Positions 1,025-31,700 of a stretch of 64,000 nt of DNA are shown one piece after another. Location of the stretch: the NCBI GenBank assembly GCA_028864975.1, contig JAGWLG010000012.1:5986-69985 (forward strand), written 5' to 3'. The notes under the pieces were generated by a model. The model made no database searches. It was not told the origin of the DNA and saw only the letters and a program-made list of their open reading frames with translations. Position 1 is the first letter of the stretch. Every line of letters begins with the position of its first letter. This DNA comes from Thermoplasmata archaeon. GTDB taxonomy: Archaea; Thermoplasmatota; Thermoplasmata; Lutacidiplasmatales; UBA184. Both the position numbers and the translations under genes were made by a program.

Positions 1025-4000
1025 TTACCTTCTACCACCGAACGGGTCAGGAGCCCGCTCGTCCTGCCCCGGACCCATAGGCTGGAGCGGGGCGACCGGG
1101 GCGGGAGCTGGACCGGGTGGTCCTGCCATCGGAGCGGGCTCGTAGGTCATCGCGGGGCCCGGCGTTGAAGCGGCCGCGTCCTCCTCATGGTGGTGGCGCG
1201 GCCCACGCTTGACCGCGAGCGCGATCAACAGAGCGGCCACCAGTACCACGACGATGAGGAGCAGGAAGGTGTCGGTCCACGAAAGCCCGAAGGGTCCCAC
1301 ATTGGGAGAGGGGGGCGGGGGAGGCGCACCGGTGACGGTGATCGTGATGCCCGCGGAGGCGGTGTGCCCCGGGCTCGCGCTGTCCGTTGCGGTCACGGTC
1401 ACCGTGAAGCTCCCGGCAGACTGATACGTGTGGGAGACCGCGAGGCCGGACCCCGCCGCCGAGCCGTCCCCAAAGTTCCAGGAGTAGGTGTAGGGGGCGG
1501 TGCCTCCTGAGGCCGCCGCGGCAAAGTTGACCGACAACGGCGCGGCTCCAGACTGCGGCGCTGAGGTGATGGCCACCGACATCCCCGCGGAGGTCTGAGG
1601 GCTCACGTCGACCCCGAACTGCTTGCTGTAGTGCCCGCTCGCGGAGTCGTTCACGAATAGGGTGATCGTGTACTGTCCCAGAGCGGAGTAGATGTGCGAC
1701 GGAGGGTTTCCCCCCGAAGTCGAGGCAGAGCCATCGCCCCACGTCCAAGCGATCGCGTAGGGGGAGGTCCCACCCGTCCCGGCACCTTGGCAAGCGACGT
1801 TCAGTGGGAGGTAGCCCGTCAGGGGGGTGCACGACCCTTGCCCTGAGAGCGGAGTGCCCGTCGTCCCTGTGACGTTGATCCCATGTCCCCTGATCAAGAG
1901 TGTGTGCTGGGGGGAGGCGCTGTCGGTAACATACAACGTTGGGAAGTATGGGCCCCCGGCGGTCGAGTAGGTGTAGGTGAAGCTCGGGTTCGCCCCGGAC
2001 GTCGTCTGAGAAGCGCTGCCGTCCCCGAAGTTCCACACGTCGGTGTAGGGGCCGGTCCCGCCATTAACCGAGCCCGTGAACGACACTGAGAGGGGTGATG
2101 CCCCTGAGTTTGCTGACTGAACGAAGGACGCCTGCAGCGGGACTGGTCCTGTGGTGACGCTGATAGCCGCGGTCTTGGTCTGGACCGTCGCCGGCCCGTT
2201 GGTCACCGTGACCGTCAGGGTCTCCGCTCCGGCCGCTGTCCCCCCGGTGAACCACGTGTCGGTGCTGTAGCCTGAGGCTGAGGTCACGTTGACCGACCCT
2301 TCCGTGCTCGAAGAGAGGGACCAAGTGTAATGGGTGTTGGTATAGAGCGGATTGCCGTACTGGTCGAGCCCCGTCGCGATGAAGGGCGAGGTGTCCAGGG
2401 TCCCCGTCGCAACGGTCGCCGTGGGAGGCGTCAGGGTCGCGCTTGTGAGGACCGGTGGCGGGAGCGAGCCCTTAACCACCTGCAGCCACGTGCACGAGGT
2501 GACCGTGTTCGGGGTGGGGCTCCCGTAGGTTACATTGAGGCAAACCGTAACGTTCCCTGGCTGCGGCCCGTTCGAATAAGCGACCGCAGTTCCCGAGGTC
2601 TTGTTCAGATTCCCCACCAGGTTGAGAGCGTTCCATGCGAACGTGGCGGACGGTGGCCAGACCAAGCTCCCAGTGGAGGAGGTCGCCGTCGCGTTGAAGT
2701 AGACCACTTTGTTCACGAGGGCTGTCGCCGTGGGGCTGGGTGTAACCGAGACGGTCGAGAGGGTGACCGTCGAGGTCACGGTGATGGCCGCGCAGGCCAG
2801 TAAGGTCACAGAGTTGTAGGTCGCGTTCTCACAGATGTGGCCGCCCCCAGCTGAGGACGGGGCGGTGTAAGTGACGCTCGAGCCGGTGCTCGGCGAGACG
2901 GAGCCAATAGAAGGGTTGGACCAGGCCCACGTGGCTCCCGTGATCGGGTTGCCGGAGGCATCGAGGGCGTTCGCCGTCAGGGAAACGGTACCACTAGTTT
3001 GGGAGGTGATCGGACTGGGCGAGATCGCGGTCGACGTGAGCGTTTGTGCGCCCGTTCCCGTGTTGCACGGGACGCGGGGGTCATGGCACCGCCAGACCGG
3101 CTCCAAGGGGTTCCCCTCGGCCAGCTGGTCGTTCTGCTGCATCGGGAAGGTGGTGATCGCACCGATCGAGCTGCTGAAGCTCGTCGGGTTGACGTTCATT
3201 TCGACACGTTCCATGACCGCCAAAACGTTGGAGGTGTTGAACGTCTGATGGACGATGTTCCCGCAGGTCCCGCTCGTGAGCCCACAGGAGGAGGGGTTGG
3301 GGTTGCCCGTCTTCATCACGCTCGGGTCGGCGATCAGGACGAAGGGGAACCGGCGCCCGTTGTTGATGTGGTCGCCGCCGTTCTGACCGTTCTGCGTGTC
3401 ATCCTGCGCCACGGCAATGACCGTGCTCTTCGCCCAGGCCGAGTTGTTCTCGATCGCGTTCACGACCAAGTTCATCGATTGGTCGTTCCACTGGATGCAC
3501 TGGGCATCCGTGAACGCGGAGCCGCAGGACGAACCGGGGTGGTCATCGAATAGCTCGACGAAGGAGTAGGTGGGGAGCCCGTAGTCGCTTAGGAAGCTGA
3601 TGTACGAGTAGGCGGACCACTGGTCCAAGAGAGGGGACTGAGCGTTGCAGGTATACTGACAGTCCCAGAGCATCTCGGGGATGCCAGTAGCAGGGTTGGT
3701 GGTGGGGGGGATGGCGCTCACGGACGAACCGTTGGTCCAGAATCCGTTCGAACCTGTACAGGAGGTGTATTCCACGGCCTTGCTGTTGCCGGGGAGGCTG
3801 CCCGGGATGCCGCCCGTCCGAGCGACGGAGCAAGAGGCCCCGCTCAACATCCACATCCAGTCCTCCTCCGAGAGGAAGGGGATCGGTCCGCCAGACTGCT
3901 TCACATTAGCACCAGTGAATCGGTCGAAGATGGTCCCGTCGGGCGGGTAGGTCTGGGACCCACTGTTAGGGGAGAACGAGCACGATCCTTTGACGACGTT

Positions 4001-14096: not shown

Positions 14097-15293
14097 ATGC
14101 AGGGCGCGGCCGGTCCAGGTGGTGGGCCCTCCGGCGACAAGCCTCAGCTCTTCAAGCCTGAGCATAAGGAAGAGATCGAGGAGAAGGAAGGGCCCTACGT
14201 CCATCTCCCGCGGCACGGTGCCGCGTGGATGCTCGTGATCGGGGCGCTCATGATGTTCATCTCCCTGGTCGCCCCCTGGTGGTCGTGGAGCATGAGCTCC
14301 ACCTCGCAGAGCTCAGGGCTGTACCTGTTCGTCTGGGGGGTCGCCTGCTTCGGCTATTCCTGCGCCGGGTACTCCTCGACTCCCCTCAACGCCCCCACCA
14401 ACCCCACGATGCAGGCGGGGAACTTCCTGCCAAACCTCGGGGTCCTCTACGGTACCGTGGCGACGATGGCCATCATTGCTGCCATCTTCGCCCTGGTCGC
14501 CGCGGCAATGATCTTCCGTGTCGCGCGCGGCTACTCCACCTACCCGAAGGCGATCGACCGTGCGGTCCTGCTCTCCTATCTGGCCGTCGCGATCTCGCTA
14601 TCCACCCCCGTGATGCTCGCGGTCGCGCAAACCTCCTCGTTCCACGCCGATTACTCGTTCCCCAACGCCATGAACCCGAACCCGGGGAACTCGTTCTACG
14701 GAAGCTCAGGACCTGCGACCTACGGCGGCATCCAGTACACGACGATGCAGTGGGGTCCCTCCTGGGGCTGGTTCCTCTCGATCTTCGGCGGGGTCTTCTT
14801 CTTCTCAGGAGGGTTCGTTCCTCACCTGACGCGGCACGAGGCCGTGACCCGGGTGGACCTCATCCGGCAAGGGCTTCTCAAGATCCGCGCGCCGCTCCGC
14901 CGCGTCCTCCCTCCCCCCATGCGGACCCCCGGTCTCCCCGCCCCGATGGCCGTCGGGGCCCCTGGCCGTGTCCTGCCGCCCCCGATGCGTCCAGGCATGC
15001 CTTCGGGCTACGGGTACCCGGGCTACCAGTCCCTCTCTCCAGGGGTCGGCTGGGCCCGCGCCCCTCCACCGGCGATGGCCCCGGGGTATCGCCCGGCCGC
15101 GCTTCCCCCTCCCGCACGGCCCGTCCCTCCTCCTGCCCCCGTCTCGACCGCGAACGCTCCGGGCTTTGTAGGGCGAGCTGCGGTCGCTCCTCGCGTCGCG
15201 CCCAGCTCAGGTCCTGCGCGGGTCTGCCCCAAATGCTTGATCCAGGTGCCCCCTCCCGCAGCTCGCTGCACCAAGTGCGGGTCGTGGCTCTGA
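14097..15293 (+). CDS. Polytopic membrane protein with a Pro-rich cytoplasmic tail and a C-terminal zinc ribbon
   Basis: 398 aa with about four TM helices (WMLVIGALMMFISLV, VATMAIIAAIFALVAAAMIF, AVLLSYLAVAISLSTPVMLAV, WGWFLSIFGGVFFFSGGF). A ~130-aa Pro/Gly/Tyr-rich segment follows. The protein ends CPKCLIQVPPPAARCTKCGSWL. Confidence 0.75.
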   Translation: MQGAAGPGGGPSGDKPQLFKPEHKEEIEEKEGPYVHLPRHGAAWMLVIGALMMFISLVAPWWSWSMSSTSQSSGLYLFVWGVACFGYSCAGYSSTPLNAPTNPTMQAGNFLPNLGVLYGTVATMAIIAAIFALVAAAMIFRVARGYSTYPKAIDRAVLLSYLAVAISLSTPVMLAVAQTSSFHADYSFPNAMNPNPGNSFYGSSGPATYGGIQYTTMQWGPSWGWFLSIFGGVFFFSGGFVPHLTRHEAVTRVDLIRQGLLKIRAPLRRVLPPPMRTPGLPAPMAVGAPGRVLPPPMRPGMPSGYGYPGYQSLSPGVGWARAPPPAMAPGYRPAALPPPARPVPPPAPVSTANAPGFVGRAAVAPRVAPSSGPARVCPKCLIQVPPPAARCTKCGSWL

Positions 15294-15318
15294 ACAGCGC
15301 CTCCGAGGGCCGGCGCGT

Positions 15319-16215
15319 TCAGCCGGACCGTGAGATCGCGATCGAAGCGTACCCGACGACCTGGTCCATCGGCTCCGCGTCCCCGCTGTGCCCTTTCGCC
15401 AGAAGCTCGGCCTTGGCATGGGACCCCTGCAAGGCACAGAGAAGCGCGGTGGTCGGAGCGATCCCGCACATCGAGATGTCCTCCTGCACGACGCGATCAT
15501 AGAGTGCCCTAGGGTCCATCCGCAGGATCGGCTCGAGAGCCCGGTCGTCCTGTCGGCGACAGACCTCGGGGGAGACGTAGTGAGAAAAGTCGGTCGACGC
15601 GAGCCACAGGACGTCCCGGTCGCCCACGACCTTCCGCAGGTGCGCGCCCAGCTCGGCGAGGAGGTCGAAGTGGGTGAACGTAACCTGCAAGGCGATCATT
15701 CGGAAACCTCCCGTGGGATAGACCGTCTGCAGGAACGGCAGTTCCACCTCGATCGAGTGCTCTCGCAGGTGGGCATCGGCGTCGAGATCCACGGGACCGC
15801 GGCCGATGGCCCCTGCGAGGTCCCGGTCCGTCGGGACCACACCCAGAGGAGTGCTCCACTCCTCGTCCGAGACCGAGAAGAGCGAGCCCCTCCCATGGTG
15901 GTTCACGCCCAAGAGGAGGACCGTGCTCGGGACCGGCTCCTTGGCGAGCCGAGAGAAGAGATGCGCGGCGATGGGCCCAGAATAGATGTAGCCGGCATGA
16001 GGCACGATGCCCGCGAGGGTACGACGAGGGCCCGTGCTCCCCGGAGCGGGGACAGGGAGCCGACCGGGACCTCGCTTCCCCGAGAAGCACTCCTCCAATG
16101 ACGCGCGGAGCGAGCGTGCGTCGCGCGGGTAGAATCCTCCGGCCACCGCAGGGACACGGACCCGTGAGGGGCGCGTGGGTCGGACGTCGGCGGCGGCGTC
16201 CTTGAGGTCGCTCAT
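15319..16215 (-). CDS. MEMO1-family protein (AmmeMemoRadiSam system protein B)
   Basis: 298 aa: PAVAGGFYP..IVPHAGYIYSG..LLGVNHHG..EHSIEVELPFLQ..STDFSHY. This is the characteristic Memo/UPF0103 motif series. Confidence 0.85.
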   Translation of the reverse strand: MSDLKDAAADVRPTRPSRVRVPAVAGGFYPRDARSLRASLEECFSGKRGPGRLPVPAPGSTGPRRTLAGIVPHAGYIYSGPIAAHLFSRLAKEPVPSTVLLLGVNHHGRGSLFSVSDEEWSTPLGVVPTDRDLAGAIGRGPVDLDADAHLREHSIEVELPFLQTVYPTGGFRMIALQVTFTHFDLLAELGAHLRKVVGDRDVLWLASTDFSHYVSPEVCRRQDDRALEPILRMDPRALYDRVVQEDISMCGIAPTTALLCALQGSHAKAELLAKGHSGDAEPMDQVVGYASIAISRSG

Positions 16216-16227
16216 GTCCCCTAGCTC

Positions 16228-16647
16228 CTACGCTCGAGAGAGCAACCCATGGACCTCTTTCCCTTCCTCGTCCGAAATGCCCCGCCGCTGTCGGGGGAAG
16301 GTCGGCTGGTCCTCGTACCGTGGGATCACATGGAAGTGCAGATGGAAGACGATCTGTCCGGCGAGGGCCCCCTGGTTGACGCCAACATTGTAGTGACGGC
16401 TCAGCCGCTCGACCCGACGGCAGACCTCGGAGAGGGTGCTCAAGAGAGGCGTATACTGCTCGCGCGGGAGCTCCGTCAAGCGGTCGACGTGGCCTTTGGG
16501 GACGACGAGGGTATGCCCCCGGCTCAGCGGGAACTTGTCGAGGAAGGCGATCGTGCCCTCATCCTCGTAAACGATCCGTGCCGGGGCCTCGTGACGTGCG
16601 ATGGAACAGAAGATGCAGGGTCCTGCCGGGGAGGCTTCCGGAGGCAT
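16228..16647 (-). CDS. HIT-family nucleotide hydrolase/transferase
   Basis: This is the 139-aa C-terminal part of ORF 16228..16929 (MPPEASPAGPCIFCSIARHE..). The histidine triad reads VFHLHFHVIPR. It ends 12 bp upstream of the MEMO gene on the same strand. Confidence 0.88.
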   Translation of the reverse strand: MPPEASPAGPCIFCSIARHEAPARIVYEDEGTIAFLDKFPLSRGHTLVVPKGHVDRLTELPREQYTPLLSTLSEVCRRVERLSRHYNVGVNQGALAGQIVFHLHFHVIPRYEDQPTFPRQRRGISDEEGKEVHGLLSRA

Positions 16648-16768
16648 CGGAAGCTCTGGACGCGGCTTTCCTGAAAGAGCCTTCCCTTCTGGCGAGAGGT
16701 CGCGGGTCCAAAGCTCGCCCACGCAAGGGGACGGACACAGCCTTATCTTCGATAGGACGGATGATACG

Positions 16769-19306
16769 ATGAGTTCCATGCTCAACGCACGCGTTCGCTC
16801 GGGACTGCGGATCGGCCTGGTCTTCGCTCTGGCCCTGGTGATGGTCCTCCCGACCGGGGTCCTCCGTGGGGTCCACCTGCCAGGGGCCGGCCCGGTCAGC
16901 GGCACGGGAGCCTCCGTGAGCTCTCCCACGACGCGCTTCGACGCTTCGGCGTCGCCCTCCGACGCCTCCCAGATCGCTGCGCTCTCCTCTGGTCAACCGC
17001 TCGTCTTCGTCATTGGCATGGCCTATCCGGACCCTGGGGCCGTCGAGAGGTTCCTCGCCGATGTCGAGAACCCCTCGTCACCGAACTACCATCACTTCCT
17101 GACGTCGGAGCAGTTCATCCAGCGCTTCTCGCCCCCCTCCACGACCGTGGACGAGGTTCGGGGGTACTTCCTTTCCCGGGGGGCGACCTCGCTCACCGTC
17201 ACTCCCGATCGCCTCAGCATGAACTTCGTGCTGCCGGCGGGCAAGGTCGCGACCACTTTCGGGACCTCTCTGGCATGGTTCCGAGCACCTTCGGGGACGG
17301 AGTTCTACGCCCCCATGGCTCCCCCGCATCTTCCCGCTCCCATCGCTCGCGCGGTCTCGCAGGTCGACGGACTGACGAGCGGTGAGAACACAGGAGTTCA
17401 CACGTTCCTTCACTCCATGGGAAGCTTCTCCGTCGCTCCCAATGGGGGGAAGCTCTCATCCCCCGCCCTCTTCGATACCACGACGGACGGGTCCCAGGTC
17501 TTCTGGGGAACGGACTACCCCGCGGCGTACGGCGCGCAGGGGCTCATCAACAGCGGGATCACTGGAACCGGCTGGGCTGTGGACACGCTGCTTTGGTCGG
17601 GCTTCAACAACAGCGCCCAGAGCAACATGCCTCCCTACGACCCGGGGGCGATCTCCCAGTACCTCTCCGCAACGTTCCCGAGCGGGGCCATCCTACCGAC
17701 GATCACCCCTGAGGCGGTCGCGGTTGGCGGGGCCACCCCGCCGCCGCCTGGGACCTACTCCCTGAACGACGATTCCGGGGCTATCATGGAGAACTCGCTC
17801 GACCTCGAGATGGTGGCGAGCACGGCCCCGGGGGCCCACGTGTACAACTGGTACATCCCCGGGAGCGCCCTGACGGGCCAGTCCGAGGCCCCCTTCTATG
17901 GAAGGTTCGACTTGGGCCTGAGCGCCGCGCTCGACTTCAACTACACGGTGAACGGCTCACCGCACGGCCTCGCCGCCATCTCGAACTCCTACGGGCTCAC
18001 CGATGCGAACGACAGCCTCTGGGACCAGCTGGAGGCGAAGGCCGCCGGTCAGGGGGTGACCCTCCTGGTCTCTTCCGGGGACTCCGGGGATGCCCCCGAT
18101 CTCGCGACGGGCCGGTCGCAGGGGGAGTGGCCCACCTGGCCGGCCACCGCCACGTTCGACACCTATGGTGCGATCGCGGTCGGGGGAACGACCATCACCG
18201 TGGGCGGGGCGCCTTACCGTGCGGGCTACAACCCGGCCTCGGGCTACCTTCCGCCGATGGGCTACGATGCGAATCAGATCACCGGGCTCACGAGCCAGGT
18301 CGTGTGGTACCTGAACCAGACGGACCTCACGACGGGAGGGCGGGCCACCGCGGGTAGCGAGGGGGGCATCAGCTCGGTGTACAACGAGCCGCTCTGGCAG
18401 GCGCAGTCGGCCGCCCAGAGCGCCATCAAGTACGCCGCGCCGCGAGAGAGCGTCTCTTACGCGCGAGGCGTCCCGGACATCTCCTCCATCGCGAACGAGA
18501 CCGTGATCTACACCGACACGACCCCCTCGCTCTCTGGGACGTTCGTCGAAGGGACCTCCATCGCCTGCCCGGTCTTTGCGGGCTTTGTGGTCCTCCTCGA
18601 CCAGATGGACAGCACGAACGGGAAGGGGTTGGGCTTCCTCGACCCCCAGCTCTACGCCATCGGCGGCTACTTCGAGAGCCAGGCCCCGGGGAGCCTCGCG
18701 GACCCCTTCGGCGGACTGGACGACGTGACCTCCGGGCAGAACTGGGTGTTCAATGCCTCCGTGGGTTGGGATCCCACGACCGGCTGGGGGACGCCCAATG
18801 TCGCTCGGCTCGCTTCGGCCCTCCTGAATCCCACCTACACGGGTTTCGTCTACAACCCCAATGCCGTGCCGGGCCAGGCGGGGTCGAACTCGAACCCCGC
18901 GCCGGGTCCCGGGTACGGCGGGCTGCTCTTCCTTCTCGTGGTCATCGTGGCGGTCGTGGTGGTCATCGCGGTCGTGGCGGTCGTCGTCTCCCGGCGCCGA
19001 CACCACCCGGCCCCTGCCGCCGGGCCGCAGGTCGTGTATCATGCGGCCGCACCAGCACCTTACATGGCGGCCCCCCACCCCGCGTACGCCCCCTACCCCA
19101 CCGCGCCCTCGTACGCCGCCCCTGCCCCCTACGCCTATGGTCCGCCCACCTACGGTTACCCCATGCCCGCGCCCGTCCCTCCTCCCGCCCCGCCCCCGCC
19201 GATGCCGCCCCCACCGACGGCGGGTCCGGTCTTCTATTGCGGCTACTGCGGGAACCCGAGGCCCTACACCCGGTCGAATTGCCCCACCTGCGGCTCGCCC
19301 CTCTAG
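16769..19306 (+). CDS. S53 (sedolisin/pro-kumamolisin-like) serine peptidase, membrane anchored, with a Pro-rich tail and C-terminal zinc ribbon
   Basis: This is the 845-aa in-frame part of ORF 16601..19306, from the ATG at 16769 (MSSMLNARVRSGLRIGLVFALALVMVL, a signal peptide). The pro-domain is NYHHFLTSEQFIQRFSPPSTTVDEV. The catalytic-domain motifs are ENSLDLEMVASTAPGA, SSGDSGD and EGTSIACPVFAGF. The TM helix is LLFLLVVIVAVVVVIAVVAVVV. The tail ends YCGYCGNPRPYTRSNCPTCGSPL. Confidence 0.85.
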   Translation: MSSMLNARVRSGLRIGLVFALALVMVLPTGVLRGVHLPGAGPVSGTGASVSSPTTRFDASASPSDASQIAALSSGQPLVFVIGMAYPDPGAVERFLADVENPSSPNYHHFLTSEQFIQRFSPPSTTVDEVRGYFLSRGATSLTVTPDRLSMNFVLPAGKVATTFGTSLAWFRAPSGTEFYAPMAPPHLPAPIARAVSQVDGLTSGENTGVHTFLHSMGSFSVAPNGGKLSSPALFDTTTDGSQVFWGTDYPAAYGAQGLINSGITGTGWAVDTLLWSGFNNSAQSNMPPYDPGAISQYLSATFPSGAILPTITPEAVAVGGATPPPPGTYSLNDDSGAIMENSLDLEMVASTAPGAHVYNWYIPGSALTGQSEAPFYGRFDLGLSAALDFNYTVNGSPHGLAAISNSYGLTDANDSLWDQLEAKAAGQGVTLLVSSGDSGDAPDLATGRSQGEWPTWPATATFDTYGAIAVGGTTITVGGAPYRAGYNPASGYLPPMGYDANQITGLTSQVVWYLNQTDLTTGGRATAGSEGGISSVYNEPLWQAQSAAQSAIKYAAPRESVSYARGVPDISSIANETVIYTDTTPSLSGTFVEGTSIACPVFAGFVVLLDQMDSTNGKGLGFLDPQLYAIGGYFESQAPGSLADPFGGLDDVTSGQNWVFNASVGWDPTTGWGTPNVARLASALLNPTYTGFVYNPNAVPGQAGSNSNPAPGPGYGGLLFLLVVIVAVVVVIAVVAVVVSRRRHHPAPAAGPQVVYHAAAPAPYMAAPHPAYAPYPTAPSYAAPAPYAYGPPTYGYPMPAPVPPPAPPPPMPPPPTAGPVFYCGYCGNPRPYTRSNCPTCGSPL

Positions 19307-19778: not shown

Positions 19779-22700
19779 ATGTCAAAGACCCCGACACGGC
19801 AGTCTGACCTAGCGAACCCCGTCGTCCACCTAGTCAAGGTTCGAGGAACGAGCTCGCTGTCGCGACGATCGGGTAGCATCGGGGATCGTGCCGGACTCAT
19901 CGGGATATTGCTTCTATTGGGGCTGCTGGTCGCACCGACTACGGCGTTCACGACCACGGGGGCCTTGCTGGCGAAGCTGCCCTCCGCGGAGGCGCCCCCT
20001 CCGGGGACGGTCCAGGGCGTGGCAAGCCTCTCGCTCTCGGCTCTTGGTAACTTCCCGGCCCCGCCCCTTGGCTCCGGGCCTTCGGCCCGGCTCCCCGGCG
20101 TGATTGACGGCCCCGGGGGCGATCTGGGCGCGCCCCTCGGCCTTCCGCCTTCCGCGTCGGTCTCTGCCGGGACTCCCCCAACCACGGCATCCCGGGCCCC
20201 CTCGTCGGGAGCCTCCACTCTGCCTCCGCCCCCCTCTTCCTCAGTCTCTTCCCCCTCCACCTTCTCCTCATCCTCCGCGGCGGGCGCCGCGGAGCTTGCG
20301 CAGGCGAGCGCCTCCCTCGGTCAAGGCGGAGGACCGGCGCAGGGCCATGCCATGTCGTGTGCGGCGTCGGCAGCGGGGTCCTTCGAGTGCGATGCGAAGG
20401 CTGACGCATCTCCGGATCTAGGATTGGGGACCCAGAGCACCACGTGGACCGAAATGGGTACGCCGGGAATGAGGGACGCTGCCTCCATGGTCTATGACCC
20501 GGCGGACGGCACGGTGGTCCTCTTCGGGGGGTACTTCAGCGGTCTCACCCAGGCGGACACCTGGGAGTACCACGGCGGCGTTTGGTATCCGGTGGACTCT
20601 CCAATCTCTCCGCCGGCCCGCTACGCGGCGGCGATGGTCTACGACATCCCCGCCGGCTACGTATTGCTCTTCGGGGGCCAAGGGGCTGGGACTTCAGGGT
20701 CCCTCCAGGACACATGGGAGTTTTCCGGAGGGACCTGGGTGCAACTCACCTCGACCTCATCGCCGGGGACACGGTATGGCGCCACGATGACGTACGACGC
20801 GGCGGACGGATACGTAGTGCTGTTCGGGGGGTTTGGGTGCTCCACGGGCTCGGGCTGCGTGGCGAGCCTCCTCCAAGACACGTGGCAGTTCTCGGGGGGG
20901 GCCTGGACCCAGCTCACTCCGACCACGTCGCCGGGAACCCGGTATGACGCCTCGATGACCTACGACACTGCGGACGGGTACGTGGTGCTGTTCGGGGGGC
21001 TTGGGTGCTCCACGGGCTCGGGCTGCGCGGCGAACGAGATCCAGGACACCTGGAAGTTCACGGGAACCACCTGGACCCAGCTCTCCATCCTCGCACTTCC
21101 GGGAGCCCGGAATGGCGCCTCGATGACCTACGACGGGGCGGACGGGTACGTGGTGCTGTTTGGCGGGTATGGGTGTTTCACGGGGTCAAGCTGCGGGTTG
21201 CATTGGCTCCAGGAAACGTGGAAGCTCATGGGGACCACCTGGACCCTGCTCACTCCCGCGGCCTCGCCGGGAATCCGGGAGGGGGCCACGATGACGTACG
21301 ACGTGACGGACGGGTACGTGGTGCTCTTCGGTGGCCACGGGCCCGGGTCCGCAGGGGGCCTCCAGGACACCTGGAAGTTCTCCGGAGGGACTTGGGCGCA
21401 ACTGGCTCCGACCACGTCGCCGGGAACCCGGACTGGCGCGACGATGACGTTCGACGTGAGGGACGGGTACGTGGTTCTCTTCGGAGGGTTTGGGTGCTCC
21501 ACGGGCTCGGGCTGCACGGTGGACTACCTCCAGGACACGTGGAAGTTCACGGGGACGACCTGGACTCAGCTCTCTCCTACCACGTCGCCCGGAACCCGGC
21601 TTGCGGCCTCGATGGTGTACGACTCGGCGGATAGGTATGTGGCGCTGTTCGGGGGGTATGGGTGCTCCACGGGCTCGGGCTGCGCGGTGGGCTACCTCCA
21701 GGACACGTGGAAGTTCACGGGGACGACTTGGACCCAGCTCACACCGACCACCTCGCCGGGGACCAGGGAATACGCCTCGATGACCTACGACGCGGCTGAC
21801 GGGTATGTGGTGCTGTTCGGCGGATATGGGTGCTACACGGGCTCGAGCTGCACGGTGGACTACCTCCAGGACACGTGGCAGTTCACGGGGACGACCTGGA
21901 GTCAGTTCGCCCCGACCACGTCGCCGGGAACCCGGTATGACGCCTCGATGACCTACGACACTGCGGACGGGTATGTGATGCTGTTCGGGGGGTTCGGGTG
22001 CTCCACGGCCTGCAACTGGCTCCAGGATACCTGGAGCTTTGGGATTCCGCTGACGGACGCTACGCCTTCGGCGTCGCCCAGCTCCCTGGACGTCGGCCAG
22101 GCCTTGCTCCTCACGTCGTCCGCCACCGGCGGGGGCCAGGGCGCCTCTCACGAGTTCGGTTGGTGGGGGCTACCCCCAGGATGCTCGACCGCAGTGCTGA
22201 CCGTGAGCGTTTCCTGCACGCCTTCCAAGGCCGGGACCTACTACGTGGGCACGGTCGTCTCGGAGTCGAACGGTATACCTCTGGCGACGGGACCGACCAC
22301 CACGGTTACGGTCTATCCGGACCCGAGCGCGACCGCGTCCGGGTCGGCCTCCTCGCGCGACGCAGGCCAGACCGTGACCCTGACCGGGCTGACCTCCGGA
22401 GGGCTCGGCCCGTTCTCAGGCATCGTCTGGAACGGCCTTCCCACGGCAAGCAGCTGCGCCGCCGCCGGGAGCCTCACCTGCGCCATCACGCTCTCGTCCT
22501 CAGGGGTGGGACAATGGACGATCACCGTCTCCGCCACGGATGCGAACGGCTTCACGGCCACCTCGATGGGCGTGGCCCTCACGGTCGACCCAGCGTTGTG
22601 CGCCAGCCCTTGCGGGATCTCGGGCGGGACCTCGCTCGATGTGGGGCAAACCGCGACCGTCCAGGCCTCCGTGAACGGAGGGACAGGGACCTACTCGTAC

Positions 22701-25700
22701 GCCTGGTCCGCCCTGTCCGGGGCGGGGTGCCCGACGACCTCGGCGTCGACGGTCGATTGCACGCCCACCGCGACGGGATCGTTCACCGTGGCGTTCGTGG
22801 CGACGGACACGAATGGGGCCACGACCGCCGCCTTAGGGGTCGTTCTGACCGTCTCGGCGGACCCCACCATCACCGCTCCAACCGCTTCGAGGGCGACCCT
22901 GGACGTGGGACAGGCCACGACGCTGACCACCACGGACGCGGGAGGGAGCGGGACCCTGGTGGTCTCGTGGTCCGGGTTGCCGACGGGGTGCCTCAGCTCG
23001 AACACGCTGTCGTTCAGCTGCTCCCCCACGGCGGTCGGGACGTTCACGGTCTACGCCAATGTCCAGGACACGCACCTGTACAACGCCACTTCGGGGCCGC
23101 TGACCGTCGTGGTGTCGCCCAGGCTCAATCCGGGGGGTTCCTTCGCGAGCCCGGCTTCGTTGGACCTTGGCCAGGCTACGACGTTCGTGACCAATGTCAA
23201 TGGCGGTACCGGTAGCTACTCCTACGGTTGGATGGCGCTCCCTCCAGGGTGCGCGGCCGCCGATACCGGCACGCTCGTCTGTACGCCAACCGCGACCGGG
23301 TCCTTCCTCGTCACAGTTTCCGTCGTGGACTCGAACAACAATCTTGTGTCCCCGGCTGCCATCGCGCTCACGGTGGGCCCCGACCCTGTGGCGGGGAGCC
23401 TCGTCGCCTCCTTGCGGGGCCTTCCTCAGCTCGGGTCGGCAAGCGCTCCGCTCACCCTGGGATCGACCCCCTCTTGGGTCCTCTACGACCCCGGGAACGG
23501 TATGGTCTACGTGGGGCAAGGGAACTGCTGCGGCGCGGGGAACACGGTCTGGGTGGTGAACCCCTCGACAGGAACGCTGGTGAAGACCATCACGACGGGC
23601 AACCTCCCCATCTCCTTGGCGTACGACAGCGCTCGGGGCGAGGTCTTCGTCGCCGAGTACGGGAACGCCCAGGTGCAGGTGATCGACGACTCGACCAACG
23701 CGCTCGTGGCCACCATCCCGATGCCGGACGAACCGCTCAGCCTCGGATACGACAGCTGGAACGGCGACGTCTACGTGGCGCTCTATGCGACGAACCGAGT
23801 GGCTGTCATCGATGGCGCCACCGATTCGATCGTCTCGCTCATCGGCGTGGGGTCGGGGCCCAACAGCGCGGCCTTCGACCCAGCGACCGGGGACGTCTGG
23901 GTCGGCGACCAGAACGGTGCCGCCGTGACCATCATCAACGGTGCCACCAACACCGTGGCGGGGACGGTGACCCTGGCGGCCGGTTCGGTCCCGGTGTTCC
24001 TGGTCTACGACCCGGCCAACGGCGACATGTACGTGCCCACCGGGACCACGCAGTCCATCGACGTGATCGATGCGACGTCGGACGCGATCGTCGACACCGT
24101 CGCCACGACGTTCAACCCCGAAGAGAGCGCGCTCGACACGGCGAACGGTTACCTCTACGTGGCGGACATCAGCGCGTCGGCGAACGAACTCCAGGCCCTG
24201 GACACGCGGACCAACACCCTCGTGGGGACCGTGGGGCTGGGGACGACGGCCTACGGGGTCGCCTACGACAGCTCCAACGGAAGATTGTACGGGAGCGGCT
24301 TCGGGAACGGGGACCTCTTCACGGTCCGCACGCTCTCCTCCGTCTCCCTCCCGAGCTCCATGAGCGCCGACGTCGGGCAGTCGGTCCTCCTCTCGGCCTC
24401 CTTGACGGGCCAGGGGAGCGGTGGGGACCGGGTGTCCCTCTCCGTCTCCCCCGCCGCGGGGTTTACCTGCATCGCCGACCCCTACGGGTACGCGAACCTT
24501 AGTGCCGGATGTCTCGCCGAGACCCCTGGCTCGTATCAGCTATACTTCCAGCTGACGGACTCGAACGGATTCACCGTCTCGACAGGGACCCTGACGCTCG
24601 TGGTCGATCCCGCGCTGGGAGGAGCCAGCGTCTCCGTCTCCCGTCTCGCCCTCGACGTGGGACAGACGACGGCCCTTTCGGCCTCCGTGAGCGGGGGCGC
24701 GGGCAGCTACGCGTACGCTTGGTCGACCCTGCCGACCGGATGCTCGGTGGGCGACGTCGGCGCCTTCAGCTGCGTGCCCTCGGGCGCGGGGTCGTTCGCG
24801 GTGGCCCTCATCGTTACGGATGGGAACGGGGCTTCGACCTCCGCTGGGACGACCTTGTCGGTCTCCCTCGACCCCACGATCTCGCCACCCACCGGGACCC
24901 TGACCCGTCTGGATGTGGGGTCCTCGACGGTCCTGGCTGCGACCGCTACGCCCGGTAGCGGTGGGGACGTTTACGCCTGGAGCGGGCTTCCGACCCCGTG
25001 CCTCTCTTCCAACGCGCTCTCCATCGTCTGCGCTCCCAGCGCGTCGGGCGAGGGGACGTTCGACGTGACGGTCAGCGTCGTCGATTCGAACGGCTGGAAC
25101 GTCACCTCCGGCCCCCTGACCATCGAGGTCGACCCCCCACTGGGGATCTCCTCGTTCACAGAATCCCGCCCCGCCCTTGACGTGGGGCAGACCGTGGTCT
25201 TCGCCGTGAGCCCGACCGGCGGCTCCGGGGTCTACACCTACACGTGGGGAGCCATCCCCGCTGGATGCGCGCGGGTCGACGCGGCCACGCTCACTTGTGT
25301 TCCCACCGGGAGCGGTAGCACCACGGTGTCGGTCTCCGTGGGCGACACGAACGGAGCCTCGCTCCCGTCGGCTGGGCTCGCGGTCGTGGTCAGCGCGGAC
25401 CCCGCGGTCTCCTCGCCGGGGGCGAGCACGAGCTCGCTCGACATGGGCCAGTCCACGAGCCTCTCGACCGTGGTCTCGCCGGGGAGCGGCACGGATGTCC
25501 TCTCCTGGGCGGGCCTCCCTGCGGGCTGCCTGAGCTCGAACGCGAACCCGGTCTCGTGCGCGCCTTCGGCCTCCGGGACCTTCACCGTCACAGTCGCTGT
25601 CCGGGACTCGAACGGGATGAACGTGAGCTCGGGCCCCTTGACGCTCGTCGTCTCCCCCGCGCTCTCCGCGGTTGCCTTGACCGCCTCTCCGGGCGCGCTC

Positions 25701-28700
25701 GACGTGGGGCAGAGCTTGACGTTCTCGGCCTCGGTCTCCGGTGGCTCCGGGGTCTACGTCTGGTCCTGGGCGACCCTCCCGACGGGGTGCGCGGGCGCGA
25801 ACGCTGCCACGCTCACCTGCTCGCCAACGGCCGCGGGCTCTTACAGCGCCCAGGCGACGGCGACGGACTCCAATGGGGCGTCCTCGAGCCACAGCGCGGC
25901 CATCGTGGTGTCCGCGGCGGTCACGGTGGGCTCCATCTCCGCGACACGCTGGGACCTGGATGTGAGCCAGAGCTCGACGCTCACGGCCACGGTCGCGGGC
26001 GGAAGCCCCTCCTTCGCCTACGCCTGGGCGGGCCTCCCTGCCGGGTGCCTGAGCTCGAACGCGCTCTCGCTGTCCTGCTCCCCCACCGCGAGCGGGACGT
26101 TCGCCCTCACGTTCTCGGCTCGGGACTCGAACGGGATGAACGTGAGCTCGACCACGATGGCCATGGTGGTGTCCCCAGCGCTGGGGACCCCCTCGATAAC
26201 GGCCTCCACCCCGAACCTGGACGTGGGACAGACCGTTTCGTTCCTCGCCGCCGAGTCGGGAGGGACCGGCAGCTACAGCTACTCGTGGACCTATAATGGG
26301 ATCCGGGCGGACCTGGTTGGTTGCACGGGGCAGGCCACCGCGAGCCTCACCTGCACGCCCACGAGCTCGGGCGTTCCCAATATCGTGGTCACCGTCTCGG
26401 ACAGCAACGCGGCCCCCCCCCAGACCCGGTCGACGACCGTGACGGTCTCGGCGGACCCGACGGTCCAGCCGATCACGGGGAGCCGGACGACGCTCGACCT
26501 CGGACAGTCGACCTTGCTCTCGACCACCTCCGCCCAGGGTAGTGGTGGCCCGACCTACGCCTGGGCCGGCCTCCCCGCTGGGTGCCTGAGCTCGAACGCT
26601 CTCTCGATCACCTGCGCTCCCGCGGGGGCCGGCACGTTTAGCGTGACGGTCTCCGTGCGCGACTCCAATGGGGTGAACGTGAGCTCGATCCCCCTGACGT
26701 TGATCGTCTCTCCGGCGATGGGAAGCGCAGCCCTCGCGGCCGCGCCATCTGCCCTCGACGTAGGCGAGACGACCACGCTGTCTTCCTCGGCCTCGGGCGG
26801 GACAGGGGTCTACGTTTACGCCTACTCGGGCCTGCCCACGGGATGCTCCTCGGCGAACAGCGCGACGCTCGCCTGCTCCCCCTCGGCCGCGGGGACCTTC
26901 CCCTCGGTCGCGCTCACGGTCACCGACGGGAACGGTGCGACGGCCACGGCCATGATTCCGATCGCCGTCTCGGCGGCTCCCGTTGCGGGGACGCCCGCGG
27001 CCTCCAAGCCCTCCCTGGACGTGGGTCAGACCACCTCGATCAGCGCCCTGGCCTCCGGAGGGAGCGGCGGCGACGTCTACTCCTGGAGCGGTCTCCCCAC
27101 CGGGTGCCTGAGCCAGAACCTGCTCTCCTTGACCTGCACCCCCACGGTCGCGGGCACCTTCAGCGTGCGCCTCTCGGTGCTGGACTCGAACCGGATGAAC
27201 GTCACCTCGGGAACGCTCACCCTAGCGATCTCCCCCGCTCTCGCGGGCGCCTTGCTCACCGCGAGCCGTAGCCTCCTCGACGTAGGCCAGACGACCCTCT
27301 TCGCGGCTTCGGCTTCGGGCGGTGCGGGAGGCGACACGTTCGCCTGGTCAGGGCTGCCCAGCGGTTGCTCGGGGGGCAGCTCGTCCTCTGTAACCTGTGT
27401 CCCGGCTGCCAGCGGACCTTTCACCGTGAGCATCGTGGCGACGGACGCGAACGGGGCTACCGCCTCCGCGAACGTGGCCCTCACGGTCTCCAGCGACCCG
27501 TCGGTGAGCGTCCCCTCGTCCTCGAGGAGCTCGCTCGACGTGGGACAGAGCACGAGCCTCTCCTCCGTCGCCACGCCAGGGAGCGGCACGCCGGTGTACG
27601 CCTGGTCGGGGCTGCCCACGGGCTGCCTCAGCGCGAACGCGCTCACGCTCAGCTGCGCCCCGACGGGGGCCGGGACCTTCGTGGTACGGGTCACGGTCCA
27701 GGACTCGAACGGGATGAACGTCAGTTCGGGGACGCTGACCCTCCTGGTCTCCACGGCGCTAGGGACCCCCTCGCTCTCGGCCTCCACCGCGACGTTGGAC
27801 GTGGGGCAGAGCGTCACCTTCACGGCGACCGAGGCGGGCGGCAGTGGGACCTACACCTTCACGTGGACGTGGGCCGGGAACCCGGCCTCGTCCGAAGGGT
27901 GCACGGGGGGGAACGCGGCCACCATCGTCTGCACCCCCACCTTCTCCCAGTCCCCGAGCGTCGTGGTCTCGGTCTCCGACAGCAACGGCATGGGCGGGCT
28001 CGTGGCCTCCACGTCGGTCGTCGTGTCGGCGGACCCCACGGTGACCTCCCCAGGCGCAACCCGCTTGGCCCTCGACATCGGCCAGTCGACGGTCCTCTCC
28101 GCGACCGCCACCACGGGGAGCGGTGGACCCACCTACGCCTGGTCGGGTCTGCCGACGGGCTGCCTGAGCGCGAACGCCCTCACGGTCACCTGCTCCCCGA
28201 CGGCCGTCGGCACCTACAGCGTGTCGATCTCGGTCCGGGACTCGAACGGGATGAACGTGAGCTCGACTACGTTGACCTTGGTGGTCTCCCCCGCACTGGG
28301 AGCCGTCGGGCTCTCCGCCTCGTCCTACAACTTGGACGTGGGGCAGTCCACGACGTTCTCGGTCTCGGTGAGCGGCGGCACGGGCAGCTACACCTACACG
28401 TGGGGATCCCTTCCCTCCGGGTGCGTGGGGTCGTCCACGCCTACGCTCCTCTGCGCTCCGTCGGGCGCCGGCAGTACCACCGTGGTCGTGTCCGTCGCGG
28501 ACACGAACGGGGTGCTCTCTGGCTCGGGGCCCGTGACGGTGATAGTCCAGGCGCCCCCCAGTGTGACCTCGCTCGGTGCGACCCGACTCGACCTTGACGT
28601 AGGCCAGTCGACGACCCTCACCGCCGCGGCCACCGCGGGCAGTGGCGGCCCCGTGTACGCGTGGTCGGGACTTCCGACCGGGTGTCTCAGTTCCAATGCG

Positions 28701-31700
28701 CTCTCGGTGACCTGCTCGCCCACCGCCCCGGGGACCTTCACGGCGGTCTTCTCGGTGCGCGACTCCAATCGCATGAACGTGAGCTCGGGCGCCCTCACCC
28801 TCGTCGTCTCCCCGGCGTTCGGGACGGCGACCCTGAGCGGAAGTCGTCTCGCCCTGGACGCGGGTCAAACGGTGCTCCTCACGACCTCGGTTTCGGGAGG
28901 ATCGGGCGGCGACTCCTATGCCTGGAGCTCGCTCCCGACCGGATGTGGCGGGGCGAACTCGGCGACGCTATCCTGCGTCCCCAGCGGCGCCGGCACCCCC
29001 ACCGTCTCCGTGACGGTCACGGACAGCAATGGGGCCACCGCCTCGGCCACACTCCCGCTGACCGTCTCCTCCGCCCCGACCATCTCCCTCCCGACCGCCT
29101 CGAGGACTGCGCTGGACGTGGGCCAATCCACGACCCTCAGCGCGACCGCGACCTCGGGAAGCGGGAGCCCGGTCTACGCTTGGTCGGGCCTCCCCGCTGG
29201 CTGCTTGAGCTCGAACGCCCTGTCGGTGGCCTGCACGCCCTCGGGGTCAGGGACCTTCAGCGTCGCGGTGTCGGTCGTGGACTCGAACGGGATGAACGTG
29301 AGTTCCGGCCCCCTGACCCTGGCGGTCTCGCCGGCGTTGGGGTCGGCGACCCTCTCGGCGAGCCGGAGCGCGCTGGACGTCGGGCAGTTTACCGCGCTCT
29401 CGGGCGCCGTCAGCGGCGGAACGGGGAGCTACACTTACTCCTGGGGCTCCCTCCCCTCGGGTTGCTCGGGCTCGAACGCGGTCGCGATCGTGTGCTCCCC
29501 CACCGCGGCGGGGACGTTCTCGGTGGCTCTCACGATCACGGACACCAACGGGGCCAGCGCGACCCCCGCGCCGGTGTCGCTCGCGGTCTCCGCAGCCCCC
29601 TCGGTGGGGTCGCTCGGTGCGACCCGCCTCGACCTGGACGTGGGACAGCTGACCACGCTCGCAGGGACGGCGACCGGCGGCAGCGGCGGGGACGCCTATG
29701 CCTGGGTCGGGCTCCCCACGGGGTGCTTGAGTTCCAACTCGCCCTCGGTGGCCTGTTCGCCCACCGCCGCCGGGACCTTCTCCATCGCGCTCTCGGTCAT
29801 CGATTCGAACGGGATGAACGTGAGCTCGCCGTCGCTGCTTCTCTCGGTCTCTCCCGCGCTCGCGGCCGCGGCGCTCAGCGCTGGGCGGAGCGCTCTGGAC
29901 GTGGGACAGGCGACGACCCTCTCCGCTTCCGCCTCGGGCGGGTCGGGCGGCCTCTCCTACTCCTGGTCGGGGCTGCCCACCGGCTGCAGCAGCGGGGGGC
30001 GGGCTTCCTTCGCCTGCGCTCCGACCTCCCCCGGGACGTCCTCGGTGTCCGTCGTGATCACGGACTCGAACGGAGCGAGCGTCTCGGCCTCGACGACGCT
30101 CACGGTCTCGTCCGCGCCCTGGGCCGGGTCGCCTACGGCGAGCCCGAGCGCTCTCGATGTCGGGCAGACGACCGCCCTTGCCGCCACCGCGGGGGCGGGG
30201 AGCGGTTCGCCGACCTACGCCTGGGGGGGCCTCCCCGCGGGGTGCTTGTCGGTGAGCTCGCTCATCCTCACGTGCTCCCCCATGAGTTGGGGGTCGTTCA
30301 CGGTGGTGCTGAGCGTTGTGGACTCGAACGGGATGAACGTCTCCTCCGCGCCACTTCTGCTCCCCATCTCTCCGGCTCTCGCCGGGGCGACCCTCTCGGC
30401 TTCCCCCGGCGCGCTGGACGTGGGGCAGTCGACTGCCCTCTCCTTCTCCGTCTTCGGCGGCTCCGGCGGCTTGACCTACGCGTGGTCCGGTCTTCCCGCG
30501 GGCTGCGCGGGAGGGAACTCGGCCACGCTCCTCTGCTCGCCCACCGCTAGCGGCACCGGCCTTGCGACGGTCCGTGCGACCGACGCCAACGGCGCCTCGG
30601 TCTCGGCGAGCGTCTCGCTCACCGTGTCGGCGGCCCTCTCCGTGGCTGCGCCCTCCGCCTCCCCCTCGGCGGCAGACGCGCAGCAGGCCGTGACGCTCTC
30701 CGCCCTGGCTTCCGGAGGGGCGGGCACCCTGGTCTACGCATGGTGGGGCCTTCCTTCCGGATGCCTCTCCTCGAACCTGGCGACCCTCCCCTGCACGCCC
30801 GCGGCCCCGGGGAGGTTCATGGTGGGCTACAGCGTACTGGACGCGAACGGAGAGAACGTGAGCTCCCCCGCGCTCTCCTTCAGCGTGTCGGCGGCGCTCT
30901 CGACCCCTGTCCTGGCGGCCTCCTTAACGGCGCTGGACCTGGGCGAGGGCACGACGATCGCCGCGACGGTGGCGGGGGGGTCCTCCCCCCTCGCCTATGC
31001 CTGGGCCGGGCTCCCGACCGGGTGCACAGGGTCCGACACGCCCACCTTGGCCTGCGCGCCCTCCCTGACCGGGACCTTCTCGGTGTCGCTCAGGGTCTCT
31101 GACGCGAACGGGGGCACGGCCACCTCGGCAGCTCTGACGCTCACCGTTTCGGCCGCTCCCACGGTGGGGATTCCGATGGCGACGCTGACGTCGCTGGACC
31201 TGGGGCAGACGACCTCGCTCACGGTGCCCTCGACCCCGGGGAGCGGCGGGCTCGTGCTGAACTGGTCGGGACTCCCGACGGGCTGCCCGGCCTCGGGGCT
31301 CCCCTCCTGCACGCCGACCGCGACCGGCACGTTCTCGATTTGGGTCTCGGCCAAGGACTCGAACGGGGTCACCGTCGTGGGCGCCCCTCTCGTCCTCACC
31401 GTTGACGGGGCCCTCGCGGCGGTCACGCTGACCGCGAGCTCAAAGGACGTGGACGCGGGGTCAGAGGTCACGCTGACAGCCGAAGTCTCGGGCGGGAGCG
31501 GGGGTTACGCCTACTCGTGGTCCGCGCTTCCCACGGGCTGCGCGGGGGCGGACGTCGCCACGTTGCTCTGCTCCCCCTCGGCCGCCGGGTCGTTCGCGGC
31601 CGCGGTCCAGGTCTCGGACACGAACGGGGCCACCTCCTCGGCCTCGGTCTCGATCACGGTGAACGCCCCGCTCTCTGTCGCGCTGTCGGATAGCCCCACC

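Follow-up and report, generated by a model that had tools for sequence, protein, structure and literature searches.

What do unrelated surface proteins of an archaeon gain from a small zinc ribbon at their extreme C-terminus, and is it the same element in each of them? The question is raised by two neighbouring genes in a window of 64,000 nucleotides from a Thermoplasmata archaeon (Lutacidiplasmatales; GenBank assembly GCA_028864975.1, contig JAGWLG010000012.1, positions 5,986 to 69,985 of the forward strand). The window is this whole stretch, and coordinates are counted from its first letter. One of the two genes encodes a protein with four transmembrane (TM) helices, the 4-TM protein, and the other a membrane-anchored S53 peptidase. 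A preliminary description of the window had read both C-termini as one shared module. We find that the two appendages, far from being copies of a single module, are separate examples of an architecture seen repeatedly across this genome and across the class Thermoplasmata. A probable, if far from certain, reading by analogy with characterized ribbon-bearing proteins is that the ribbon tail would be a tethered docking knob.

The 4-TM protein (14097-15293, + strand; 398 aa) is represented by seven orthologues. Translation of its open reading frame (ORF) ends in ...ARVCPKCLIQVPPPAARCTKCGSWL, with the knuckles CPKC-x10-CTKC directly before the stop codon. The AlphaFold2 model, based on 96 family members, has a predicted local distance difference test score (pLDDT) >90 across residues 31-255 and confidently places the TM helices at residues 37-58, 112-143, 152-185 and 223-244. 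The last of these (14763-14828) is announced by a near-invariant WGPxxGW just before it, W219, G220, G224 and W225 each being conserved in at least 90% of the 96 family members. The helix is followed by a cytoplasmic tail of 132 residues (14829-15224), which opens with the basic stretch TRHEAVTRVDLIRQGLLKIRAPLRR and continues as a low-confidence linker rich in Pro, Ala, Gly and Tyr that is predicted to be disordered (pLDDT 40-60). The predicted C4 zinc ribbon CPKCLIQVPPPAARCTKCGSWL (15225-15290) closes the protein and is modelled with beta bridges at pLDDT 85-89. All seven orthologues keep this ribbon as CPxCxxxxPPPAxRCTKCGxxL at the end of tails of 170-265 aa, in which the linker varies in both length and sequence.

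The S53 peptidase (16769-19306, + strand) is of the sedolisin/kumamolisin type and has 845 aa, or 842 aa in the database gene call, which begins 3 codons downstream. Its propeptide matches Pro-kuma_activ (PF09286; E 7e-24, residues 66-204), and homologues have both PF09286 and PF00082. The motifs GTSI and SGD are found at residue 595 and at 436/439, respectively. In an alignment of 25 sequences G592-T593-S594, S433-G434-D435, E338 and D342 are invariant; we take them to hold the catalytic Ser, the Glu/Asp and the oxyanion Asp. A signal peptide or signal anchor (16805-16864; predicted helix 2-23) is hydrophobic and follows the basic n-region MSSMLNARVRSGLR. At the other end, the TM anchor GGLLFLLVVIVAVVVVIAVVAVVV (18917-18988) was located both by a Kyte-Doolittle scan and as a helix at residues 714-741 in the AlphaFold2 model, which was built on 25 aligned homologues. 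The basic stop-transfer stretch SRRRHH and a putatively disordered linker rich in Pro, Tyr and Ala together span 83 residues (18989-19237; linker pLDDT ~30), and lead to the predicted C4 zinc ribbon CGYCGNPRPYTRSNCPTCGSPL (19238-19303), small, beta-bridged and modelled at pLDDT 53-70. The C-terminus reads ...FYCGYCGNPRPYTRSNCPTCGSPL, and the knuckles CGYC-x10-CPTC stand directly before the stop codon. S53 genes are strongly expanded in this archaeal family: this genome has 14 matching stretches, and relatives have as many as 17. Many of the matches lie within ORFs that are 1000-2800 aa long and contain PKD repeats; in this genome, four bear ribbon tails.

Both ORFs end as had been claimed, with the ribbon at the close of a Pro-rich segment after the last TM helix, and in both a basic stretch stands next to the helix. 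The feature goes beyond chance, being kept in 7/7 orthologues of the 4-TM protein and in 20/20 of the S53 peptidase. The latter 20 are 34-100% identical and come from several genera and metagenomes; the ribbon is present in none of 52 more distant Thermoplasmata S53 paralogues. In all, 116 homologues of the S53 peptidase were found, and homologues in public databases carry the label Thermoplasmata or Thermoplasmatales archaeon. Conservation along these 20 proteins is strikingly uneven. The mean pairwise identity is 0.41 in the propeptide and catalytic region, 0.20 in the TM helix, 0.15 in the linker and 0.48 in the ribbon, which is the best-conserved region. The linker ranges from 29 to 174 aa, and its DNA in the window contains short imperfect tandem repeats (19087-19135 and 19166-19200) that fit a fast change of length. 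The loop residues kept besides the cysteines are particular to each family, Y..PRP among the S53 orthologues and PPPAxRCTKCG among those of the 4-TM protein, a sign that they form a specific surface and do more than clasp a metal. An element far better conserved than its tether, at the free end of a disordered tail, has the layout of a docking element, and this favours a docking knob.

The side of the membrane on which such an element would act can be read from the flanking charges. Basic residues follow the last TM helix in both focal proteins (in the S53 peptidase, 0 K/R before the helix and 3 after). Among the 12 large type-I ribbon proteins of this genome, the 15 residues before the last TM helix hold 0-1 K/R, and 3-6 K/R come after it in 11 of the 12. 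By the positive-inside rule, the ribbon tails are therefore cytoplasmic. The family of the 4-TM protein gives a second line of support. A profile search of a library of 1.8 billion proteins with its membrane domain yielded 104 representatives at 50% identity. A ribbon is found at the C-terminus of 30 of these, in 5 cases at the N-terminus as well, and at the N-terminus alone in 10; a further 2 carry another zinc module, for example a C2H2 finger, and 62 have none. Since both ends of a four-helix protein face one side, ribbons at either end or at both support the cytoplasmic side. At the level of sequence, the terminal ribbons of both focal proteins are shown to face the cytoplasm, as had been proposed.

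Paralogues and distant homologues of the 4-TM protein bear other modules at their ends: a generic ribbon, a C2H2-like finger or a ribbon of the CxxCGxPTxxxxQYxRYYC type. The last is a distinct terminal ribbon, in full CxxCGxPTxxxxQYxRYYCxxCxxY(V/A), that occurs on small multi-TM proteins as well as on the 4-TM paralogues, so placed that the proteins end in -YV or -YA. In this genome (G000) it is encoded at G000:C32:67235-68324, C32:68427-69285, C104:114327-114942, C121:57954-58281 and C121:69644-70462, and in some of these paralogues the second knuckle has decayed (WYCRRDNQYV).

Are the two focal ribbons copies of one module? The preliminary description held that they share a spacing of x10-12 between the knuckles and the ending C-G-S-(W/P)-L. 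The spacing is indeed x10 in both. The ending is a coincidence of this genome and is not kept in orthologues, which end in CGAPL, CGAQL, CGAL, CGTLLPR and others. When the C-terminal ribbons of the genome are ranked by BLOSUM62 global score, neither focal ribbon is close to the other, the mutual ranks being 18th and 30th of 45, and both match the generic Zn_Ribbon_1 (PF13240) and DZR (PF12773) families weakly. We reject one shared module on these ranks and because CGS(W/P)L is not kept among orthologues. On this sequence evidence the two ribbons go with two different protein families, each inherited vertically within its own. The CxxC-x10-CxxC knuckles fit a beta-hairpin zinc ribbon of the Zn_Ribbon_1/DZR class, and binding of one zinc ion through the four cysteines is predicted. 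Zn_ribbon_3 (PF13248), DUF7575 (PF24460) and DUF7577 (PF24463) belong to the same CxxC-x(about 10)-CxxC class as PF13240 and PF12773. The ribbon of one S53 orthologue exceeds the cut-off of DUF7575, and 29 of 42 C-terminal ribbons of the genome match PF13240 or PF12773 at E <= 0.1, many of them passing the cut-offs. We know of no tested function for the Pfam families of the Zn_Ribbon_1/DZR type.

How far the design extends was determined by a census of the genome (3.6 Mb, 67% guanine plus cytosine (GC), 124 contigs). Genes were called by our own procedure based on third-position GC (2930 genes, 83.5% coding), TM helices were assigned with a Kyte-Doolittle window, and a C-terminal ribbon was defined as CxxC-x6-20-CxxC within 10 residues of the stop. 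The expectation that the motif extends beyond the two focal proteins is borne out, as 46 proteins carry a C-terminal ribbon. They are not randomly scattered: 33 of the 46 (72%) have a TM helix, compared with 754 of 2930 proteins overall (26%; odds ratio 7.6, p = 6e-11). The ribbon is found on 12 of 119 type-I-like surface proteins, compared with 13 of 2176 proteins without a TM helix. These 12 large type-I carriers include four S53 peptidases, three proteins with both Kelch and PKD domains, one with Kelch only and one with PKD only.

The same census shows what the Pro-rich tail is. The 119 type-I-like proteins, all with tails of 30 aa or more, divide into 82 whose Pro-rich tail lacks a ribbon, 12 ribbon carriers and 25 with another kind of tail. 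About 100 surface proteins therefore use a TM helix with a Pro-rich tail as their default anchor, and on about a tenth the ribbon is added to it. The earlier view of the helix plus Pro-rich tail as a special shared module does not hold. Proline makes up 17-21% of the tails, compared with 7.5% of the proteome and 11.6% expected for random sequence of 67% GC. A pure GC artefact as the source of the Pro-richness was considered and rejected in part, as proline is above the neutral expectation and P/Y/Q-rich linkers are found in relatives with GC of 45-52%.

The relatives show that the ribbon tail is not confined to one genome. In three genomes from a different family of the same order, with GC of 45-52%, ORFs of ~1425 aa have an elaborate ribbon tail (L048 G025:C11, L049 G027:C3 and L050 G029:C1). 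In these the TM helix leads into a double ribbon right beneath the membrane and then into a Trp-rich helical segment (FWRWWRTQP). A third ribbon comes next, and after it a P/Y/Q-rich linker that closes with a terminal ribbon. Ribbon tails at such GC contents indicate a class-wide design that is no by-product of high GC.

These counts bear directly on the possibility that there is no common logic at all: a generic ribbon would be easily gained, the two focal genes would be chance neighbours and the Pro-rich tails compositional drift at 67% GC. Zn_Ribbon_1 is abundant throughout the class (13-60 matches per genome, in 41 of 41 class relatives searched), ribbons also occur on soluble proteins of this genome, at either end, and the generic nature of the Pro-rich tail, the limited likeness of the focal ribbons and the high proline content of random GC-rich sequence are all as such drift would have it. 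We nevertheless consider this explanation unlikely, given the strength of the enrichment on membrane proteins, the standing of the ribbon as the best-conserved region of S53 orthologues whose overall identity is 34-59%, the excess of proline, the retention of P/Y/Q-rich linkers at GC of 45-52% and the repeated gain of ribbons at either cytoplasmic end of the 4-TM family.

Two further groups of ribbon proteins were seen in the census and among the relatives. The Kelch beta-propeller plus PKD surface family has its own short-loop ribbon followed by a Trp (CxxCGxPLxxxxCxxCGxxW), at G000:C53:9910-14070, C121:80747-84610 and C54:68390-71998 (L040, L041 and L043). Soluble proteins of relatives (L051 G039:C6, L055 G029:C2 and L056 G030:C1) have a ribbon at the N-terminus and a helix-hairpin-helix-like segment, together with 3-5 ribbons of the form 'LYICPxCGAxVSxxxxxCPKCG' in tandem, set apart by acidic spacers; they may be CdpC-like multi-ribbon proteins of the kind described in a 2026 preprint, discussed below.

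The appendage consists of three parts. A basic stop-transfer stretch just past the last TM helix is followed by a tether rich in Pro, Ala and Tyr, of about 80-130 residues and predicted to be intrinsically disordered, and by a C4 ribbon of ~22 residues, of the generic Zn_Ribbon_1/DZR kind, at the very C-terminus. On the docking reading, the ribbon would serve as a zinc-stabilised knob for protein docking and the linker as a flexible tether for reaching a partner under the membrane. In this way the knob would couple a protein on the outside, whether a protease, a Kelch/PKD adhesin-like protein or a claudin-fold tetraspan, to a cytoplasmic partner, for positioning, clustering or regulation.

Several known systems resemble this arrangement in part. 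In Escherichia coli, ZipA consists of a TM helix, a long P/Q-rich tether and a globular FtsZ-binding domain of ~140 aa. As in the focal tails, a TM anchor and a Pro-rich unstructured tether lead to a small terminal binding domain, which in ZipA faces a cytoplasmic filament; ZipA is anchored at its N-terminus, however, and has no ectodomain, no zinc ribbon and no homology to the focal proteins. CdpC (HVO_0399) of Haloferax volcanii is a membrane anchor of FtsZ1 whose C4 ribbon binds FtsZ1, and changing any zinc ligand from Cys to Ala abolishes the binding; multi-ribbon remote homologues of CdpC are reported from all Thermoplasmatota classes (bioRxiv 10.64898/2026.07.16.738847). Compared by its description, CdpC shares with the focal proteins an archaeal origin, a membrane-bound end, a long disordered linker (243 aa in CdpC) and a C-terminal C4 ribbon. 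It differs in being cytoplasmic and bound by an amphipathic helix within an N-terminal C3H ribbon, with no TM helix or outside domain, whereas the focal proteins have a TM helix and, in the peptidase, an S53 ectodomain.

Bacteria provide further parallels. In GltJ of Myxococcus xanthus, the zinc ribbon (ZnR) and its linker form a switch in which the ZnR binds its own linker and MglB (PMC11135422). The zinc finger of ZitP from Caulobacter crescentus binds PopZ, according to the account given in the same paper (PMC11135422; the ZitP papers are PMC5182065 and PMC5182063). GltJ and ZitP are bitopic and resemble the focal tails in that a disordered linker tethers a small zinc ribbon, on the cytoplasmic side, to the membrane-spanning part; in these two bacterial proteins the ribbon acts in protein docking or as a switch. 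Unlike them, they are bacterial and carry an N-terminal ribbon of another sequence type with longer spacing, in GltJ together with a GYF domain, and partners of the ZitP/GltJ type, PopZ and MglA/B, are bacterial systems. In Firmicutes, a layout of zinc ribbon inside, TM helix and YARHG domain outside was reported in 2012 (PMC3355149). It is the same inside-ribbon, TM, outside-domain layout in N-terminal (type II) form, whereas the focal ribbons are C-terminal, follow a long Pro-rich linker and are borne by type-I surface proteins and a tetraspan.

The preliminary description had called the arrangement undescribed. For the C-terminal version on archaeal surface proteins this stands, as our literature search turned up analogues but no paper on zinc-ribbon tails at the C-terminus of surface proteases, adhesin-like proteins or tetraspans from archaea, and zinc ribbons are not mentioned in Makarova 2015 (PMC5898192). 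It does not stand for the elements, as the Pfam class, the Firmicute layout of 2012 and the precedents of CdpC, ZitP and GltJ were known.

The ribbon might instead be a terminal cap or topogenic device without a partner, a fast-folding zinc knuckle which keeps the C-terminus in the cytoplasm or shields the disordered tail from exoproteases and from AAA+ unfoldases that engage loose ends (PAN/proteasome, Cdc48, membrane LonB). Such a cap would explain why the ribbon is so small, why it sits on disordered tails and always at the very end of the protein (within 0-10 residues of the stop, or in residues 1-40), and why unrelated ribbon types, as suit a generic physical role, are found across protein families. 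It appears quite improbable to us, as 82 of the 119 surface proteins have long Pro-rich tails that are uncapped, the topology is already set by the positive-inside stretch, and the conserved, family-specific loop residues would be superfluous for a mere cap. If the ribbon is a mere stabilising cap, the finding is of modest interest.

A role as a membrane-tethered regulator, with DNA or RNA bound by the ribbon or with the ribbon set free by proteolysis, is highly unlikely: zinc ribbons often bind nucleic acids, and such a role has been proposed for the N-terminal Firmicute layout with the YARHG domain (PMC3355149) and likewise for YdjG, a ribbon-bearing TM protein encoded in the PspA operon (PMC9239133), but a lone 22-residue ribbon with Pro-rich loops and without an adjoining basic or helical DNA-binding domain would be a poor sequence-specific binder, and none of the kinds of protein that carry it (proteases, Kelch/PKD adhesin-like giants and a tetraspan) is of the sensor type, with no linked regulator genes.

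The tethered docking knob remains our preferred reading, and several points weigh against it. Most surface proteins, 82 of the 119, manage without a ribbon. Both focal ribbons score below the curated Pfam gathering cut-offs: that of the 4-TM protein reaches 16.9 bits with PF13240 and 18.2 bits with PF12773, and that of the S53 peptidase 12.4 and 16.8 bits, where the cut-offs are 25 bits for Zn_Ribbon_1 and 27.3 bits for DZR. Ribbons of different protein families are alike in little beyond the four cysteines, so that no single common partner is indicated and the partner may differ from family to family. A profile of 42 ribbons searched against the PDB gave DZANK1, ribosomal proteins and rubredoxins as best matches, and ZitP and GltJ were absent from the 60 matches listed. 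The disorder of the tails and the binding of zinc are themselves predictions, and the gene and TM calls behind the census are crude. Finally, we identified no partner, and no gene neighbour points to one.

Which cytoplasmic protein might be bound? The genome encodes three tubulin-family proteins and SepF. By analogy, FtsZ/CetZ-type cytoskeleton proteins are candidate partners, and a cytoskeletal partner is a reasonable first guess because haloarchaeal FtsZ1 is anchored by a C-terminal ribbon on a long disordered linker, as reported in 2026. The suggestion of an ESCRT-like partner found no support: no Snf7-family (ESCRT-III) match was detected in this genome, which is 89.6% complete, although the test is weak, as the family was matched in Sulfolobus only below the cut-off. 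A bolder extension of the analogy is that, in wall-less Thermoplasmata, dozens of surface proteins, among them proteases, Kelch/PKD adhesin-like giants and claudin-fold tetraspans, would be wired to one cytoplasmic hub, for example FtsZ/CetZ, through a ribbon or an APDPFGGRR-type handle (see below) on a Pro-rich tether; we regard this as very doubtful.

The membrane domain of the 4-TM protein offers a parallel of its own. When the model of this domain (14097-14888) was compared with the PDB by Foldseek, all 50 listed matches were claudin, TARP, GSG1L, GARLH4 or CaV-gamma chains or complexes containing such chains, with probability 0.99-1.0, identity of 9-15% and, for single-chain targets, a TM-score relative to the target of 0.57-0.73. 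At the level of sequence family, no Pfam claudin-family match (PF00822 or PF13903) was found at E <= 0.1, and no Pfam family matched at all. In the family consensus a W follows TM1 and loop 1 contains C-x-G-x-x-C, a likeness by eye to the claudin W-GLW-C-C with no profile match. The protein is predicted to adopt a claudin/TARP/PMP22-like fold, as a resemblance of fold only. With the claudin/TARP/PMP22 tetraspans it shares four helices and, in the model, a beta-sheet that loops 1 and 2 form on the outside. Claudins and TARPs also have, like the 4-TM protein, a disordered cytoplasmic C-terminal tail with a conserved element at its extreme end, which is a PDZ ligand in the former and a zinc ribbon in the latter. 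The C-terminal PDZ-binding motifs of claudins and TARPs dock the scaffolds ZO-1 or PSD-95, which parallels the docking reading of the ribbon tail. Our literature search on prokaryotic claudin-like proteins found nothing specific.

The two ribbon-bearing genes are neighbours but do not form one operon, as a Memo-like gene (15319-16215, - strand; Pfam Memo, E 1e-60) and a HIT gene (about 16228-16660, - strand; Pfam HIT, E 2.5e-26) intervene on the opposite strand. The order 4TM(+)-Memo(-)-HIT(-)-S53(+) is also found in relatives (L034, L035 and L036) whose proteins are only 45-55% identical, and the two ribbon genes are equally spaced in G001-G003 (G001:C77, G002:C54 and G003:C47). This conserved four-gene neighbourhood yields no functional hint, and no regulator genes are linked to it.

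Three further surface proteins of the window had been described as having the TM helix and Pro-rich tail without the ribbon, two of them ending in GRR. These tails are real. In each, basic residues and then a Pro-rich tail of 61-71 aa follow the TM helix. They belong to a phosphoesterase/PKD surface protein (cytoplasmic tail 1028-1210, - strand, ending in ...APDPFGGRR), a 4162-aa surface protein (acidic cytoplasmic tail 32061-32264, + strand) and a 686-aa surface protein (cytoplasmic tail 41798-41998, + strand, rich in Pro, Tyr and Gly and ending in PPGRR). All three are ordinary members of the set of 82 proteins with ribbon-less Pro-rich tails. The 4162-aa protein (19779-32267) has Kelch-like and PKD-like repeats, as judged by eye.

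Ribbon-less tails have motifs of their own. The terminal motif ...(E/D)x(V/R)AP(D/N)PFGG(A)GRR-COOH is common to three large type-I surface proteins of 1173, 1455 and 1555 aa, the first being the phosphoesterase/PKD protein (window 1028-1060, - strand) and the others lying at G000:C98:17121... and G000:C75:49247.... A GRR end occurs on 7 proteins of the genome, compared with 1.6 expected from composition. Alongside the ribbon, the APDPFGGRR-type end may represent another type of handle at the cytoplasmic terminus. PPxY is over-represented in ribbon-less type-I-like tails (20 observed, compared with 7.6 +/- 2.5 in shuffled tails), and repeats of the PPGY/PxYP type are found in many cytoplasmic tails, for example at 41798-41998.

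Many Thermoplasmata lack a cell wall, so that any organiser of their large surface proteins must act through the membrane. Wiring to one hub, if true, would amount to a prokaryotic equivalent of the claudin-ZO-1 or the integrin-cytoskeleton link, by which the surface would be positioned, clustered or moved from within. More generally, a conserved cytoplasmic zinc knob on proteases, adhesin-like giants and tetraspans is a testable candidate for a link between inside and outside, and docking, if true, would assign a role to the Zn_Ribbon_1/DZR ribbon, which ranks among the most abundant of the uncharacterised small domains in archaea.

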